Positions 16,751-22,021 of a DNA stretch of 64,000 nt are shown in pieces (position 1 is the stretch's first letter; every line of letters starts with the position of its first letter). The position numbers and the translations under genes were made by a program. Origin of the DNA: an uncultured archaeon (GTDB taxonomy: Archaea > Iainarchaeota > Iainarchaeia > Iainarchaeales > VGJJ01); NCBI GenBank assembly GCA_964427715.1, contig CAYRUV010000001.1, positions 124,125 to 188,124 of the forward strand, read 5' to 3'. Under the pieces are notes generated by a model. It did not search any database. It had not been told where the DNA came from and worked only from the letters and a program-made list of their open reading frames with translations.

Positions 16751-16978
16751 TTACCCCATTCGTTCGTTCAACCAGTTGTAGATGAGCGCAAATACTCCCA
16801 ATCCAATGGCCATGGCAATTCCCATTCCTACTCCTCCGGTGGTTTGGCCCATCATCCCATAGTATGCGCCCATCATTCCGTACGAGCCGCCCATGAAGAA
16901 TCCCATTACTAATCCAAGGATTCCCCCGGCGAGTGCGAAGGCCAAAGGATTGAGTCTCATTGTTTTTTCGTTCTTCAT
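16751..16978 (-). CDS. small Met/Gly-rich 2-TM membrane protein, last gene of the copper operon
   Basis: ATGA overlap with the copA stop; [19 protein letters not shown]...GMMG repeats. Confidence 0.6.
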
Positions 16979-19167
16979 TTTTTTTCCTCCATTTTTTTGA
17001 ATCGTATGCGTCGCAGCAGGAGGGCGTTGGTGACCACGGACACACTGCTCAGGGCCATGGCCCCTCCTGCGATGATGGGAGAGAGCAACCACCCCGTATA
17101 AGGGTAGAGGATTCCGGCGGCGATGGGAATGCCTAACACGTTATACACGAGGGCCCAGAACATCCCTTGCTTGATTTTTCCCATGGTGGCCTTTCCCAAG
17201 TGGAGGGCATTCACCACATCATAGGGGTTGCCTTTCATGAGCACCACGTCTCCGGCCTCGATGGCGATGTCGGTGCCGCTGCCCATGGCAATTCCTAATT
17301 CGGCCTGAGCCAGGGCGGGGGCGTCATTGATTCCATCTCCCACGAATGCGACCTTTTTTCCTTGCGCTTGAAGTTTTTTCACATATTCGGCTTTTTGCTC
17401 GGGCAGCACGTGAGCAAACACATTGGTTATTCCCGCGCGAGCGGCAATCGCTTTGGCGGTGCGCGCATTGTCTCCGGTAATCATCCACACGTCCTTGTGC
17501 AGGTCCTTAAGCTCCTTCACGGTAGCGGCGGAGGATTCCTTGAGTACGTCCGCAATGCCAATAATGGCAAGCACTTTTTTTCCACTGGATAGGACAACCA
17601 CCGTCTTTCCTTCATTTTCCCACTTTTCATTCATACCCTCATACTCATCGAGGGGAATTTGTTGTTCCTCCGTCCAGCGAATATTGCCTAATCGATACGC
17701 CTTTCGCTGGTGGGTTCCCTCCACTCCCTTCCCGAAGTGGGCCTTGAACCCGTCTATTTTAGAGGCGGGTATTTTCTTGGATTGTACATACTGCACGACG
17801 GCCTGCGCGAGGGGATGCTCCGATTTTTCTTCCAATCCTCGGAGGATTCCCAGAATGTCCTTTGTTTCTTTCTCATTCTTCACCCACACGTCCGTGACCT
17901 GAGGTTTTCCCTGCGTGATGGTTCCCGTCTTGTCGAACACAATCGTATCAATCGCGTGCATGGTTTCAAGGGCCTCGGCACCTTTGATGAGTATTCCATT
18001 CTCCGCCCCCACTCCCGTGCCCACCATAATCGCAGTGGGAGTAGCAAGTCCCAATGCGCAGGGGCATGCAATCACGAGGACGGAGACACTGGTAACTAAT
18101 GCAAATGCCAGGGTGGCCTGCCCGAATGTCATCCATCCAATGAAGGTCAAGAGTGCAATCCCAATCACAATAGGGACGAACACCGCGGATATTTGGTCCG
18201 CGAATCGCTGAATGTCTGCCTTGCTTCCTTGGGCATCCTCGACCAATTGAACAATTCGTGCCAAGACGGTATTTTTTCCCACTCCCGTGGCTTTGAATGT
18301 GATGCTCCCATTCAGGTTGATGGTTCCCCCGATGACCGTGTCTCCTTTTCTCTTTTCGGCTGGGATGCTTTCTCCCGTAATCATACTTTCATCAATGGCG
18401 GTCATTCCGTCCGCGATGATTCCATCCACCGGAATGCGTTCGCCGGGGCGCACGACAATCATGTCATTGAGTATGACTTCCGAAATGGGAATTTCCATTT
18501 CCTTTTTTCCCCGCATGACACGTGCCATCTTGGGAGACAAATCCATGAGTTTTCGAATGGCCTCGCTGGTTTTTCGCTTGGCTAAGGCTTCCAAGTATTT
18601 CCCTAGAATCACGAGCGTGATGAGCACGGCCCCCACCTCAAAGTATTGTTCGTCTCCAAACCCGAAGAGGGTGGCTACGCTGTAGAAGTACGCGGCGCTA
18701 GTTCCAAGTGCGATAAGCGTATCCATACTCGCGGTCCTATTTTGCAAGGCCGTCCACGCTCCTAAGTAGAAGTGTCGTCCGATGTAGAATTGGACGGGCG
18801 TGGCTAATGCGAACAATACCCACTCACGCTGGGGAAAGTCCATGAGGAACATCCCAATGATTAATGCCGGGAATGCAAGCACACTTCCAATGATGAGCTG
18901 GTTCTTCAACTCCGCGATTTCCTTCGCTCGTATTTCCTGTTCGCGCTGGGAGGAAATGTCCAGGCTCGCCGAGTACCCTCTTTTGTTCACGGCCTCCATG
19001 AGGTCTTTTTCTCCGGCCTGCTTCTCATCGTATTCCACGCGGGCCTTTTGCGTGCCGTAATTCACATTGGCCTCTTTCACGCCGGGCACTTTCTGCAATG
19101 ATTTGGTGATGAGCACGGCACAGCTCGCGCAGTGCATTCCATCAATGGCCATTTCTATTTTTTTCAT
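16975..19167 (-). CDS. copA: P1B-1 type Cu(I)-translocating P-type ATPase
   Basis: HMA GMHCASC, TGES, CPC, DKTGT, GDGIND, YN and MALSS transmembrane ligands. Confidence 0.93.
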
Positions 19168-20090
19168 GCGAATCCCCCCCACACGAATGCGGATTTAGGT
19201 CCCCACACGATGAGGGTGAGAATGAGGAGCATTGCCACGAGACAAAATCCCACGAAGGGGATGAATCGGATTGTTTTTTTCTCGGATTGAATGGGCCCCA
19301 CTTCCTGGAGCATGAAATAACTCATTCCCCCCAGGATGAGGAAGGAAACCCCAAACAGAATGTAGAGGAATTCGAGGAGGTGATCGGTAATCATCATCAC
19401 ACTCAACATGGCCCCCATGGTCCCCGACATGAGTCCGGCCATGAGTCCTTCGAGGATGCTCATGATTCCATTCTTGCGCATCGCATAGGCACTAATTCCC
19501 ATCCCAATGATCATTCCTCCCACGCTTCCAATGAACATTCCATTCGTGGCTCCCATGAGAGCGCCGCTCATGAATCCGGACATCATTCCGATGCCCATTC
19601 CAGCCATCATCCCGTGGGTGCAGTTGAAGTGCTCCCGTAAGGGGTGGATGTGCAGCAAGGATCCCCCCACGAGGGCGGTTCCAATTGGAAGGAGTGCGAG
19701 AATGGGCCATTGTCGCGCCACACTATCATTTCCTGCGGCCAGAAACTGAAAGGCACCATACATCGCCAGAGAGGCCAAAACGAGACACCCAATCGTGTAT
19801 TGGACGAGTTGATGCTCGGCCTCAAACCCTTTGGCATTCGAGAGAATGCGTGTGAGGGTGTGGGTGAGGTGGCTGCCTGTACTGTTTCCTTCATCCAGGT
19901 AATCGTATTCGCGAAGTCGATTCTTGATTAAGTGCACGTCCTCCTCTCGGCACGTGAGGGTGAGGGTCTTTCCATCCTGAGAGAGAGATTCGATTCGTGC
20001 CTGAGGAATTTTTTGCAGAATTCGTCCGATGACTTTTTCGCAGGCCTCGCAGGAGACATTTTGAATAGGAAGTGTGAGCGTGTGAGTCAT
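19164..20090 (-). CDS. HMA-domain plus Met-rich multi-pass membrane protein
   Basis: N-terminal NVSCEAC; [16 protein letters not shown] and [14 protein letters not shown] in TM segments; ATGA overlap with copA. Confidence 0.75.
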
Positions 20091-20100
20091 TTTTTTCTCC

Positions 20101-20301
20101 TCAGGCGACCTGGTATCCTTCCTTCTCAATGGCTTTCTTCACGTTTCCCATTTCTTTTTTTTCATCCTTGACGTCCACGACGATTTCTCCTTTTGCATGG
20201 TTAGCCGACACGACTTTAGTGCCGGTTTCCTCAATGGATTCCGTGAGCATGATTTCGCAGCTCCGGCAGTGCATTCCCTTGACTTGTATGGTTTTCTTCA
20301 T
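20101..20301 (-). CDS. copZ: CopZ-like heavy-metal chaperone
   Basis: 66 aa, VKGMHCRSC, ends AIEKEGYQVA. Confidence 0.8.
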   Translation of the reverse strand: MKKTIQVKGMHCRSCEIMLTESIEETGTKVVSANHAKGEIVVDVKDEKKEMGNVKKAIEKEGYQVA

Positions 20302-20714
20302 CCCATCACCTCGATAGTCCCGTTGAACATTTTCATGGAACAATGGAAAGGAAACGTTCCCTCCTTGGAGGGAGTGAATTCAATCGATGTTTCTCCTTGC
20401 GAGGGGGCAAGCTTTCGTATCTTGTATTCGGGAAAAATGACCTCTCGTCCGCACCCGGCGTATTCATCGGCGGAATAGTGGATTCTCACTGGGATTCCTT
20501 TCTTCACGTATAGGATGGAGGGTTCATAGGTCCCGTACTTAGTGGCCTTGAGAAACACCTCTTGTTTCCCATCTATAATTGGGGGAAACGTAATCGATCC
20601 TGGGTCGACAATTTCCTTGTCAATCTGGGTGGACGCGGCCCCGGCTGAAAAAAGGAGAAACACTCCTCCCAAGACTAGTGCGGCCATGATTCCAACAATA
20701 ATCGCGTGGTTCAT
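20298..20714 (-). CDS. membrane-anchored cupredoxin-domain protein (CupA-like)
   Basis: One N-terminal TM; YEPSILYVKKGIPV, GC, EFTPSKEGTFPFHCSMKMFNG. Confidence 0.8.
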   Translation of the reverse strand: MNHAIIVGIMAALVLGGVFLLFSAGAASTQIDKEIVDPGSITFPPIIDGKQEVFLKATKYGTYEPSILYVKKGIPVRIHYSADEYAGCGREVIFPEYKIRKLAPSQGETSIEFTPSKEGTFPFHCSMKMFNGTIEVMG

Positions 20715-20718
20715 GGAA

Positions 20719-20777
20719 GTTTCAGGTCGTGAAACGATATATAAGGACTGGTGAAACAATGTTTCATATCATGAAAC
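20719..20777. promoter_or_regulatory. divergent promoter with two GTTTCA-N5-TGAAAC palindromic operators flanking a shared TATA box
   Basis: 20719-20735 GTTTCAggtcgTGAAAC and 20761-20777 GTTTCAtatcaTGAAAC; ATATATAA at 20737-20744; extra half-site TGAAAC at 20752. Confidence 0.65.
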
Positions 20778-21280
20778 AATTGCACTTCTCCGGACTCTCC
20801 TTCCGTGCCAAGACGGGAATATGGATTGCCCTCGTATTAGTGTTTGTTTCGATTCTCACTCTCACCACGCTCTCCTACCTCTCGCCCACCTATGAAGGGG
20901 TAATCGGTTTCTTTGTTCATTTTCATTTTGAGGCCATGGTGCTGATCGGCTTGTTGGGGGTAGGAATTGGCGGAGTTAGCTTCTATTTGTTGGAGCGGGA
21001 GATTCAGGGGAAGGAAGGTACGATTCAAAATCAATCCCAATTGTTGTTGTCTTTCTTGACTCCCTTAGAAAAGGACTGCGTCTTATTTTTGGTCAAGAAT
21101 CACGGGGAATGTTTCCAGTCAGATCTCTCCCGTCTTCCGGGAATGACTCGCCTGAAGGCGCATCGGATGGTCCAACGACTGCATGAGCGAAAAATCATCC
21201 ACCCTTCCTCGTATGGGAAGGCGAACAAATTAGTGCTCGCCGATGAGTGGAAGACCGGCCTTTCTTCCCTGGAACACTAA
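20759..21280 (+). CDS. membrane-anchored (2 TM) winged-HTH protein
   Basis: Two hydrophobic helices, then FLTPLEKDCV...CFQSDLSRLPGMTRLKAHRMVQRLHERKII. Confidence 0.75.
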   Translation: MFHIMKQLHFSGLSFRAKTGIWIALVLVFVSILTLTTLSYLSPTYEGVIGFFVHFHFEAMVLIGLLGVGIGGVSFYLLEREIQGKEGTIQNQSQLLLSFLTPLEKDCVLFLVKNHGECFQSDLSRLPGMTRLKAHRMVQRLHERKIIHPSSYGKANKLVLADEWKTGLSSLEH

Positions 21281-21844: not shown

Positions 21845-21947
21845 GTTCTCAACTCCTAGAATTAGATGTTACAATAAATATATCGGACATACGATATTAA
21901 AAGTGGGTTGGAAAATCTCGAAAAATAACCCTAGAAAAATAGACGAG

Positions 21948-22021
21948 TGCACCGGAGAGGATTTGAACCTCTGACCTCCCGATTATCAGTCGGGTGCTCT
22001 ACCAGGCTAAGCTACCAGTGC
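21948..22021 (-). tRNA. tRNA-Ile(GAT)
   Basis: Cloverleaf GCACTGG/CCGGTGC-A, anticodon arm CCCGA-CT GAT AA-TCGGG, T loop TTCAAAT; no intron, no CCA. Confidence 0.95.

Follow-up and report, generated by a model that had tools for sequence, protein, structure and literature searches.

The question raised by this locus is which protein controls its copper operon, and how a copper signal could reach the promoter. The window is the whole stretch of 64,000 nucleotides that was analysed, and the locus occupies positions 16751-21280 of it. The operon lies on the minus strand in the order CupA-like cupredoxin, copZ, HMA/Met-rich membrane protein, copA and Met/Gly peptide. The first gene encodes a membrane-anchored cupredoxin-like protein of 138 amino acid residues (20298-20714; PF13473, E 2.5e-11), followed by a CopZ-type HMA metallochaperone of 66 residues with the sequence MHCRSC (20101-20301; PF00403, E 1.5e-8), which the NCBIfam CopZ models match below their cut-off. 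The third protein has 308 residues (19164-20090) and consists of an N-terminal HMA domain (CEAC; weak Pfam HMA match) and a Met-rich polytopic membrane domain; the latter has no match in Pfam and was not assigned to a family by search, and the protein is kept in the operon across both phyla, Iainarchaeota and Micrarchaeota. The fourth is CopA, a Cu(I)-exporting P1B-type ATPase of 730 residues (16975-19167; TIGR01511, 644 bits against a cut-off of 397), with E1-E2_ATPase, Hydrolase and HMA domains in Pfam. The P1B-1 signatures ACPCALG (CPC, TM4), VYNVLG (YN, TM5) and MALSSV (MxxSS, TM6) are all found in its translation. The last open reading frame encodes a small membrane peptide of 75 residues rich in Met and Gly (16751-16978), with homologues directly after copA in the loci L027, L029, L030 and L052. 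By their coordinates, the junctions cupredoxin/copZ, HMA-membrane protein/copA and copA/peptide are ATGA overlaps, and the only non-overlapping junction of the four is a 10-nt gap between copZ and the HMA-membrane gene. An earlier sequence-only reading had proposed both this gene order and the three overlaps, and the gene coordinates and domain matches agree with it.

The CupA pattern of copper ligands is Cys...Cys-x-Met-x-Met. The cupredoxin-like protein carries a GCG...C-x-M-x-M motif, and 40 of 41 homologous HSPs have CxMxM; by its fold, hydrophobic N-terminus and Cys...CxMxM ligands it would qualify as a CupA-like Cu(I) chaperone. The N-terminal transmembrane anchor, the Cupredoxin_1 fold, the ligand pattern and the encoding together with copA are all features of the CupA-CopA pair of S. 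pneumoniae. However, the operon of that bacterium is under a soluble CopY repressor. The same reading had noted no CopR/TRASH or CsoR regulator, and genome-wide profile searches bear this out: neither TRASH (PF08394), which control genomes do match, nor CsoR (PF02583) has any match in the whole genome, although the assembly (898 kb) is 85.6% complete and another regulator could therefore be missed.

The gene divergent from the operon, here called REG, encodes a protein of 169 amino acid residues with two transmembrane (TM) helices and a C-terminal wHTH (20771-21280, plus strand). Its start is most likely ATG 20771 (MKQ...), because this is the only start retained in orthologues; the alternatives GTG 20729 and ATG 20759 are unlikely. 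Two hydrophobic 19-mers with KD values above 1.6 are found at about 16-37 and 55-75. The AF2 model of the monomer, which is of medium confidence (pLDDT 77, pTM 0.44), has helices at 11-37 and 52-94 and a wHTH at 98-164. The predicted layout is thus TM1 at about 16-37, a short outer loop, a TM2 helix at 52-94 that continues into the cytoplasm, and then the wHTH; the charge distribution fits a topology with both termini inside. Hydropathy, model and Foldseek matches agree with the claim that the divergent gene combines two TM helices with a wHTH. A VHFH motif in the membrane region had also been pointed out. Its second His, H52, is conserved and its first is not, so the conserved candidate ligands, all at the outer TM2 end, would be H52, E54 and M56 in place of the His pair. 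The sequence H52-F-E-A-M56 at the start of this helix is invariant, as is the recognition helix MTRLKAHR.

The best Foldseek matches of REG are wHTH proteins of the MarR/ArsR type, with E about 1e-3 and an identity of 14-23%. The best Pfam match is DUF7343 (PF24034; E 2e-4, 21.6 bits against a cut-off of 27.6), followed by MarR_2 (E 2e-3, 18.6 bits against 27), both below threshold; the NCBIfam search gave no match, and among solved structures none was found with a related sequence. DUF7343 is above threshold, in precomputed PF24034 matches, in the relatives P0024-26, P0058, P0068, P0082 and P0098. Since these were found with a REG profile, REG is probably a divergent member of DUF7343, a family with no assigned function and no mention in the literature searched. 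Assignment to MarR was rejected on the sub-threshold MarR_2 score and on the N-terminal part, which consists of two TM helices; to ArsR/SmtB, on the absence of any HTH_5 or HTH_20 match, the likeness being one of fold (E about 3e-3 to 2e-2). PF02583 (Trns_repr_metal) does not match REG, which speaks against CsoR/RcnR, and there is no TRASH match in REG, against CopR/CopT. For CopY/BlaI there is no Penicillinase_R-type match in Pfam or NCBIfam at E <= 0.01, and the C-terminus has no Cys cluster. REG shares the C-terminal fold and the pseudo-palindromic, promoter-overlapping operators of MarR and ArsR-SmtB sensors such as AdcR, ZitR, CadC pI258 and AntR. However, the helices at both termini through which MarR proteins dimerise are missing from REG, as are the alpha3 and alpha5 metal sites of ArsR, and its sensor part would be in the membrane. 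The claim that the protein matches no characterised system therefore holds for the Pfam, NCBIfam and structure searches, in which no characterised homologue was found.

The intergenic region contains five TGAAAC/GTTTCA half-sites around one TATA box. Palindrome 1 (GTTTCAGGTCGTGAAAC, 20719-20735; sites A and B) and palindrome 2 (GTTTCATATCATGAAAC, 20761-20777; sites D and E) are both perfect copies of GTTTCA-N5-TGAAAC, 42 bp apart, and between them is the TATA box ATATATAA (20737-20744), common to both divergent promoters, as the earlier reading had proposed. The fifth half-site, C (20752-20757), is a lone TGAAAC on the REG side of the TATA box, ahead of the REG start; it follows site B at a distance of 22 bp, or two turns of the helix. 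All-A/T 8-mers in this genome peak at -30/-29 from start codons, a sign that the mRNAs are mostly leaderless; relative to the TATA box of this locus, the cupredoxin ATG (20714) has a spacing of -30 and the REG ATG (20771) one of -34. Each palindrome had been thought to cover one predicted transcription start. This is correct for palindrome 2, which overlaps the start codon and predicted transcription start of REG, but not for palindrome 1, which falls short of the cupredoxin start: it covers -5 to -21 of the predicted leaderless promoter, on the start side of the TATA box. Its site B directly adjoins the TATA box and takes up the BRE position of the REG promoter. The genome-wide search that the earlier reading had called for found the two palindromes to be the only such sites in the 898 kb; by chance, the window would be expected to contain about 0.32 sites when one mismatch is allowed. 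The spaced pair TGAAAC-N16-TGAAAC occurs in this genome at the REG/cop locus only.

The arrangement is conserved well beyond this genome. REG is divergent from cupredoxin/copZ/copA genes in all 39 loci collected from Iainarchaeota and Micrarchaeota genomes. The HFEAM and MTRLKAHR motifs served as seeds for this set, which therefore samples one subfamily; in 38 of the loci the divergent genes begin with cupredoxin. The exact TGAAAC-N16-TGAAAC pair surrounds the TATA box in 32 of the 39, so that the motif is present upstream of orthologous operons, the place on which the sequence-only reading had staked its proposal. Outside those promoters one further pair was found in 518 kb, and it adjoins a REG paralogue. 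In 11 orthologous promoters the ATAT core of the TATA box and the TGTTTCA and TGAAAC of palindrome 2 are invariant, whereas the N5/N6 spacer is variable; site B is invariant in the 11 close orthologues and site A is kept in seven. The motif is the best-conserved non-coding sequence at orthologous loci. Palindrome 2 is kept in the remote loci L086, L097 and L099, and a full palindrome 1 is also present in L083, where it adjoins a multicopper oxidase. In distant loci the half-sites are mostly direct TGAAAC repeats at a spacing of 22 bp and not palindromes, an unusual arrangement for a symmetric dimer. Of 61 relatives, 43 have REG in their genome, and 25 of these carry TATA-type pairs; none of the 18 genomes that lack REG has one (Fisher p = 8e-6). 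In one genome (G032) REG is unlinked and the motif pair is located 112 bp upstream of a distant cupredoxin-copZ-HMAmem-copZ-copA cluster. The sites are unique to the locus, deeply conserved and linked exclusively to REG.

The TGAAAC boxes might instead be promoter elements, or sites of another factor, with a different role for the REG wHTH. GAAA resembles BRE sequences of other archaea, and site B overlaps the BRE position. We regard this as very improbable. GAAAC[AC]ATATA does not occur in the genome, and the spaced pair is confined to the locus. The motif follows REG whichever gene adjoins it and is absent from genomes without REG; in addition, recognition helix and half-site are conserved together, also in the members not associated with copper.

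The reading that we prefer is that REG is a membrane-tethered, one-component copper-sensing regulator of the cop operon and of itself, which probably represses both leaderless promoters. We put its probability at roughly 0.6, and every part of the earlier interpretation that sequences could address (the architecture, the conservation of the motif and its tracking of REG) was upheld. The binding of REG to these sites, copper as its ligand and the sign of regulation are what we infer from these features. In the proposed mechanism, REG would form a dimer through the Gly-rich TM2 and the linker helix, and would occupy the half-sites that bracket the TATA box common to its own promoter and that of the cupredoxin-copZ-HMA-copA genes. 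With sites A and B occupied, REG would cover the stretch from the TATA box towards the cupredoxin start as well as the BRE position of its own promoter; with sites C, D and E occupied, it would cover the stretch from the TATA box to the REG start, and that start itself. Such occupancy would block TFB and RNA polymerase at both promoters, resulting in repression and autorepression. Copper arriving at the outer face of the membrane would bind the His/Glu/Met site and move the TM2-linker helices; the altered geometry or affinity of the wHTH would then derepress the export operon. There is one conserved His per chain, and a metal site would therefore need the dimer or the Glu and Met ligands.

REG probably acts as a repressor. 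In characterised archaeal regulators, an operator overlapping the core promoter usually means repression. Here, towards either gene, sites coincide in part with core promoter elements and with the predicted start, which leaves little room for a pre-initiation complex. Against this, copper-loaded REG could stand beside the BRE and TATA box, recruit TBP and TFB and switch the operon on, as an activator or dual regulator. Each palindrome is upstream of one promoter and downstream of the other, and site B reaches the BRE position. In P. furiosus, CopR binds similarly placed sites between copR and copA and is an activator of transcription in vitro (PMC7830388), so the position of the sites leaves the sign unfixed. 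On balance activation appears rather unlikely.

Copper as the signal is suggested by the remote relatives. Those carrying H-x-x-x-M at the outer TM2 end have copper genes as partners and the same operator layout: P0062, P0073 and P0053 are paired with multicopper oxidases and P0064 with copA. Two members without H-x-x-x-M, P0068 and P0098, have no copper genes among their neighbours. By gene neighbourhood, the H...M-type REG proteins are linked to copper genes. In a sister subfamily a C-x5-C-x-H-E loop replaces HFEAM, and the neighbours and regulon include DsbA-like, AhpC/TSA-like and DsbD-type genes together with copper genes. This loop and these gene neighbours are among the points that would fit a REG that regulates the operon but binds no copper itself, and senses a secondary signal: thiol or redox damage in the envelope, a perturbed membrane, or the metal loading of a partner protein (membrane cupredoxin, HMA-membrane protein or CopA). 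The single conserved His per chain, and the fact that REG is always co-encoded with membrane copper proteins, point the same way. His, Met and Glu, however, are typical copper ligands, and H-x-x-x-M tracks copper genes despite differing partners, for example a lone multicopper oxidase, which disfavours dependence on any one partner. We consider such indirect sensing unlikely.

Direct signalling from the membrane also has to be compared with release by proteolysis, in which REG would be an inactive precursor and a signal-triggered protease would free a soluble wHTH for the operator. Regulated proteolysis is known for other membrane-tethered regulators, and the linker (residues 74-97), predicted to be long and exposed, has the lowest confidence in the AF2 model (about 59-71). 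No protease gene is conserved across the 39 loci, however, and the cells are very small, so that the DNA is always near the membrane. ToxR, CadC and ArnR can work while tethered (PMC10269533, PMC6396743), and we judge a proteolytic route for REG to be improbable.

The copper-sensing repressor proposed here resembles two groups of known systems. The archaeal CopR/CopT proteins, with an Lrp-type HTH and TRASH, are divergent from copA in Saccharolobus, Thermococcus and Pyrococcus (PMC7830388). REG would share with them the one-component design, the divergence from a copA/copZ cluster, the common intergenic region and the presumed copper response; it is divergent from copA-bearing genes with a conserved intergenic motif, a likeness of layout by analogy and not by homology. 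CopR, however, is soluble and cytoplasmic, with an N-terminal HTH, a C-terminal Cys-rich TRASH sensor and Lrp-like octamers, whereas the non-homologous REG has no TRASH, two TM helices, a C-terminal wHTH and candidate ligands that face outward. The second group is that of the transmembrane transcription regulators (TTRs), which include ToxR, CadC, BcrR and the archaeal ArnR/ArnR1 (PMC10269533, PMC6396743). With at least one predicted TM region and a DNA-binding domain in one protein, REG falls under their definition (Demey et al. 2023). In these proteins, as proposed for REG, the signal is read at the membrane by the polypeptide that carries the DNA-binding domain. In ArnR/ArnR1, ToxR and CadC the DNA-binding domain precedes the TM segments; REG has the opposite order, starting with its two TM helices, and is in none of the TTR families. 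No characterised TTR is known to sense copper or another metal, and neither appears in the text of the 2023 TTR census.

To our knowledge, the well-studied copper regulators are all soluble cytoplasmic proteins (CueR, CsoR, CopY, archaeal CopR/TRASH) or two-component systems. REG may be the first transcription factor of any domain to sense copper while bound to the membrane, and would represent a third design, in which a single polypeptide reads copper at the outer face and contacts the promoter directly. With its operator it would also form the first such regulatory pair to be defined in the Iainarchaeota and Micrarchaeota, which are uncultured and whose gene regulation is almost entirely uncharted, and it would be an example of transcription control from the membrane in minimal-genome cells. 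The system is compact, with a protein of 169 residues, a 60-bp operator and three candidate ligand residues, and the deep conservation of protein helix and DNA half-site offers a natural series for the study of membrane-tethered wHTH proteins.

The REG family has 951 representatives at 50% clustering, and its nameable members are DPANN archaea. It looks modular: outer loop and regulon vary, while the DNA-binding part and half-site are constant. This could make it a source of new extracytoplasmic sensors. A wider proposal, which we hold tentatively and at somewhat less than even odds, is that REG is the founder of a large family of membrane-integral one-component sensors of metal and envelope stress. 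Its His/Glu/Met site at the outer end of TM2 would read extracytoplasmic copper directly, the C-x5-C-x-H-E loop would do so in the sister clade, and the signal would pass along a continuous helix to a wHTH on a TATA-bracketing operator. The host of the protein described here is a tiny DPANN archaeon, Candidatus Iainarchaeum, and REG and its putative DNA target are conserved across two archaeal phyla.

The gene that diverges from the copper operon, REG (window 20771-21280, plus strand), codes for a protein of two transmembrane helices and a C-terminal winged helix-turn-helix (wHTH) domain. The best-supported reading is that REG is a membrane-tethered one-component regulator of its own gene and of the copper operon. 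Hydropathy places the transmembrane segments TM1 and TM2 at about residues 16-37 and 55-75. Lys and Arg residues occur three times before TM1, are absent from the loop and appear again after TM2, a distribution pointing to an N-in/C-in topology in which the loop is outside the cell. The AlphaFold2 model (20 homologues, pLDDT 77) consists of TM1 (11-37), a short helix (44-50), one unbroken helix spanning residues 52-94, which serves first as TM2 and further on as a cytoplasmic linker, and the wHTH domain (98-164). In Pfam, REG has sub-threshold wHTH matches only (DUF7343, 21.6 vs 27.6 bits; MarR_2, 18.6 vs 27 bits), and it has no match in NCBIfam. Foldseek returned generic MarR/ArsR wHTH folds only (E about 1e-3, 14-23% identity), and the profile search against the PDB gave no true relative, only chance matches to RuvA (E >= 2e-3).

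In an alignment of 20 REG sequences, with identity down to 36%, the invariant residues include H52-F-E-A-M56 at the outer end of TM2, the recognition helix M-T-R-L-K-A-H-R, and G63 and G67 within the Gly-rich TM2. The sequence-only reading had pointed to the two histidines of a VHFH segment; the second of these, H52, is invariant, while the first varies between His, Gln and Arg.

The copper operon consists of five genes on the minus strand. They code for a membrane-anchored cupredoxin-like protein (20298-20714; PF13473, E 2.5e-11), a CopZ-type HMA chaperone (20101-20301), an HMA domain (CEAC) fused to a Met-rich polytopic membrane domain (19164-20090), CopA (16975-19167) and a two-helix Met/Gly-rich peptide of 75 residues (16751-16978). 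CopA scores 644 bits against TIGR01511 (cut-off 397), and its sequence shows the CPC, YN and MxxSS motifs. The gene order first read from the DNA is borne out by coordinates and domain matches, and by start and stop positions three of the four junctions overlap by ATGA, as claimed; between copZ and the HMA-membrane gene there is a gap of 10 nt. The membrane domain of the fusion belongs to no Pfam or NCBIfam family. More than 30 Iainarchaeota and Micrarchaeota loci keep this fusion, with copZ on one side and copA on the other, and it may be a new copper-handling membrane protein. The Met/Gly-rich peptide is translationally coupled to copA by its ATGA overlap; homologues lie 3' of copA in several relatives (L027, L029, L030, L052), and none was detected by tblastn in most loci. 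On the other side of REG, a flavin-reductase gene is convergent with it, and just past that gene lies a tRNA-Ile(GAU) (21947-22021, minus strand).

The intergenic region contains two perfect GTTTCA-N5-TGAAAC palindromes, palindrome 1 at 20719-20735 (half-sites A and B) and palindrome 2 at 20761-20777 (half-sites D and E). Their centres are 42 bp apart, as had been proposed, which corresponds to four helical turns. The shared TATA box ATATATAA (20737-20744) lies between them, and a fifth half-site TGAAAC, site C (20752-20757), is found exactly 22 bp past the TGAAAC of palindrome 1. A genome-wide motif scan found no other copies of GTTTCA-N5-TGAAAC in the whole 898-kb genome, which is 85.6% complete. 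A TGAAAC next to a TATA box might be a BRE/TATA consensus of the lineage. This was rejected, as GAAAC[AC]ATATA is absent genome-wide and the TGAAAC-N16-TGAAAC pair occurs only at this locus.

Promoter positions were calibrated on the upstream regions of 568 long ORFs of the same genome. All-A/T 8-mers cluster with their start at -30/-29 from the ATG, and the A/T content is maximal at -29 to -24; therefore most mRNAs are leaderless, and their TATA box has its centre near -26. The Shine-Dalgarno-like peak (GGTGA/GGAGG) at -14 to -10 is only minor genome-wide. In sister species the cupredoxin gene has a short GGTGAT leader that is lost from the copy in the window. Measured from the cupredoxin ATG (20714, minus strand), the shared TATA box begins at -30, which is the genomic mode; measured from the ATG at 20771 on the plus strand it begins at -34, and from the ATG at 20759 at -22, which is too close. 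Two other REG starts, GTG 20729 and ATG 20759, were dropped as lying inside or too near the TATA box; orthologues have CTG at the latter position and keep only the ATGAAAC start. Because of this TATA spacing and start conservation, REG most likely begins at 20771 (MKQ..., 169 residues), and its start codon sits within palindrome 2.

It had been suggested that each palindrome covers one predicted transcription start. This stands for palindrome 2, in the REG start region (predicted start about 20767); palindrome 1 is located at -5 to -21, in the cupredoxin promoter. The right half of palindrome 1 directly borders the TATA box and takes up the BRE position of the REG promoter, and site C together with palindrome 2 spans about -15 to +10 of that predicted promoter. 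By occupying the half-sites that bracket the shared TATA box, REG would control both divergent promoters. The sites reach over BRE, proximal promoter and start positions at both leaderless promoters, which makes repression relieved by copper the most likely sign of regulation. An activating or dual role has a precedent in the activator CopR of P. furiosus (PMC7830388); by this analogy it is conceivable for REG, though less likely. The candidate sensor is the invariant His/Glu/Met residues at the outer end of TM2. In a dimer kept together by the Gly-rich TM2, they could make up one joint site, and the signal would be transmitted through the uninterrupted TM2-linker helix. Three points are predictions made here from sequence: that REG binds the DNA, that it binds copper, and which way it regulates.

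Conservation of the locus is consistent with this arrangement. REG homologues are present in 43 of 61 related genomes. The nine loci from the same genus have a REG of 62-67% identity, which diverges from the same cupredoxin-copZ-HMA-membrane-copA operon. In 11 aligned promoters, the TGAAAC of site B, the ATAT core, G.AACA of site C, TGTTTCA of site D and TGAAAC of site E are invariant; the N5/N6 spacers and the flanks drift, and site A is retained in seven. The alignment is a textbook example of a predicted footprint.

A scan of 185,579 species genomes with REG protein motifs yielded 39 loci, a set biased to the HFEAM/MTRLKAHR subfamily by seed motifs from a narrower alignment; they bear the names Iainarchaeum, Micrarchaeota/Micrarchaeia and Norongarragalinales. 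All 39 have a copper gene divergent from REG within 1.5 kb, a cupredoxin in 38 cases. This association was not built into the search, because the seeds were motifs of REG and not of its neighbours. The operator motif recurs at the orthologous loci: the exact TGAAAC-N16-TGAAAC pair is upstream of REG in 32 of the 39, and the one further copy in their 518 kb precedes a second REG paralogue. The 61 relatives together have about 54 such pairs, compared with nine for a reversed-pattern control. Pairs with a TATA-like core are found in 25 of the 43 genomes with REG and in none of the 18 without it (Fisher p = 8e-6). One pair, within a ribosomal-protein operon (L092), lacks a TATA-like core and was set aside as a chance match. 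Beside REG, copA is reduced to a C-terminal fragment at L038 (7338-7748, genome G040) and L081 (7833-8030), which points to operon decay in some lineages; at L081 REG is likewise a fragment, and at L038 the operator pair is still whole.

A pair of this type is also found where REG is unlinked. In genome G032, REG is on a separate contig amid non-copper genes, and a TATA-type pair (L088:12686; G032:C1:460685) lies 112 bp upstream of cupredoxin-(158 aa)-copZ-HMA-membrane-copZ-copA, oriented as in the window. A second operator-type pair (L088:6369) precedes a gene for a Cys/His-rich AhpC/TSA-like membrane protein and, after it, one for a DsbD_TM protein. The two pairs suggest one putative regulon joining copper export with envelope thiol-redox genes. 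Further pairs in other relatives adjoin copper-associated genes: in G052, copA and the gene for a small Met/His-rich protein; in G045, an HMA-fusion gene near copA.

It is useful to compare REG with known systems. The archaeal copR-copA module likewise has a divergent regulator and intergenic sites; however, the TRASH domain that defines CopR is absent from REG, and the two are not homologous. The claim that no known type of copper regulator is present stands for TRASH and CsoR proteins, with none of either genome-wide. In REG the transmembrane helices come first and the wHTH domain last. No transmembrane transcription regulator is known to sense a metal. By architecture REG fits the broad class of transmembrane transcription regulators, the census of which contains neither 'copper' nor 'metal' in its text (PMC10269533); ArnR and ArnR1 are characterized archaeal examples (PMC6396743). 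The cultured micrarchaeon Mia14 has instead a laterally acquired island of CopR type (PMC5498576). The literature searched on copper regulators of DPANN and Micrarchaeota, and on archaeal TGAAAC/GTTTCA operators, gave no description of the REG system, and no mention of DUF7343 was found in it. Together with the NCBIfam and PDB profile results, this agrees with the initial failure to match the locus to a characterized system. As far as sequence analysis goes, the earlier reading of the locus is supported. Cop regulons and transmembrane one-component regulators are both known kinds; the carrier family is uncharacterized, and its operator is clearly defined and deeply conserved.

The wider REG family comprises 951 representatives at 50% clustering (E <= 1e-3), nearly all of 150-190 residues. 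Among 131 full-length top matches, 69 have H-x-x-x-M (25 of these H-x-E-x-M), 12 have Cys pairs in the loop and 50 have other, longer loops. Gene context follows the motif among the sampled members. Of those with H-x-x-x-M, P0062, P0073 and P0053 have multicopper oxidases as divergent neighbours, and P0064 has copA and an HMA-DsbD-cupredoxin fusion; no copper gene adjoins P0068 or P0098, which lack the motif, and P0082 adjoins a DsbA-like gene. The four copper-linked remote loci keep the layout of half-site, TATA, half-site and palindrome over the ATG. At the non-copper locus L094 (4340-4490; P0068, which scores above the DUF7343 threshold), two genes coding for an unknown 146-residue protein and the regulator form a unit; it is preceded by GGTTTCA/GGTTTCG repeats at intervals of roughly 20-23 bp and by a GTTTCG...CGAAAC palindrome. 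Across the family, the half-site seems to go with the conserved recognition helix, whereas outer loop and regulon differ from member to member.

In a sister clade (L033, L035, L036, L040, L041) a C-x5-C-x-H-E outer loop replaces HFEAM. Copper genes are nearby, with DsbA-like, AhpC/TSA-like and DsbD-type genes, and the divergent neighbours are small membrane proteins together with thioredoxin/DsbA-like and DsbD-like proteins; one case also has a cysteine desulfurase and a lipoyl synthase. We take these neighbourhoods to resemble the bacterial Scs/Dsb copper-tolerance loci. At L086 (523-1493), the multicopper oxidase beside REG-like P0073 is followed by DUF302 and SHOCT genes. Both families also flank the copper island of CopR type in Mia14 and Cuniculiplasma (PMC5498576).
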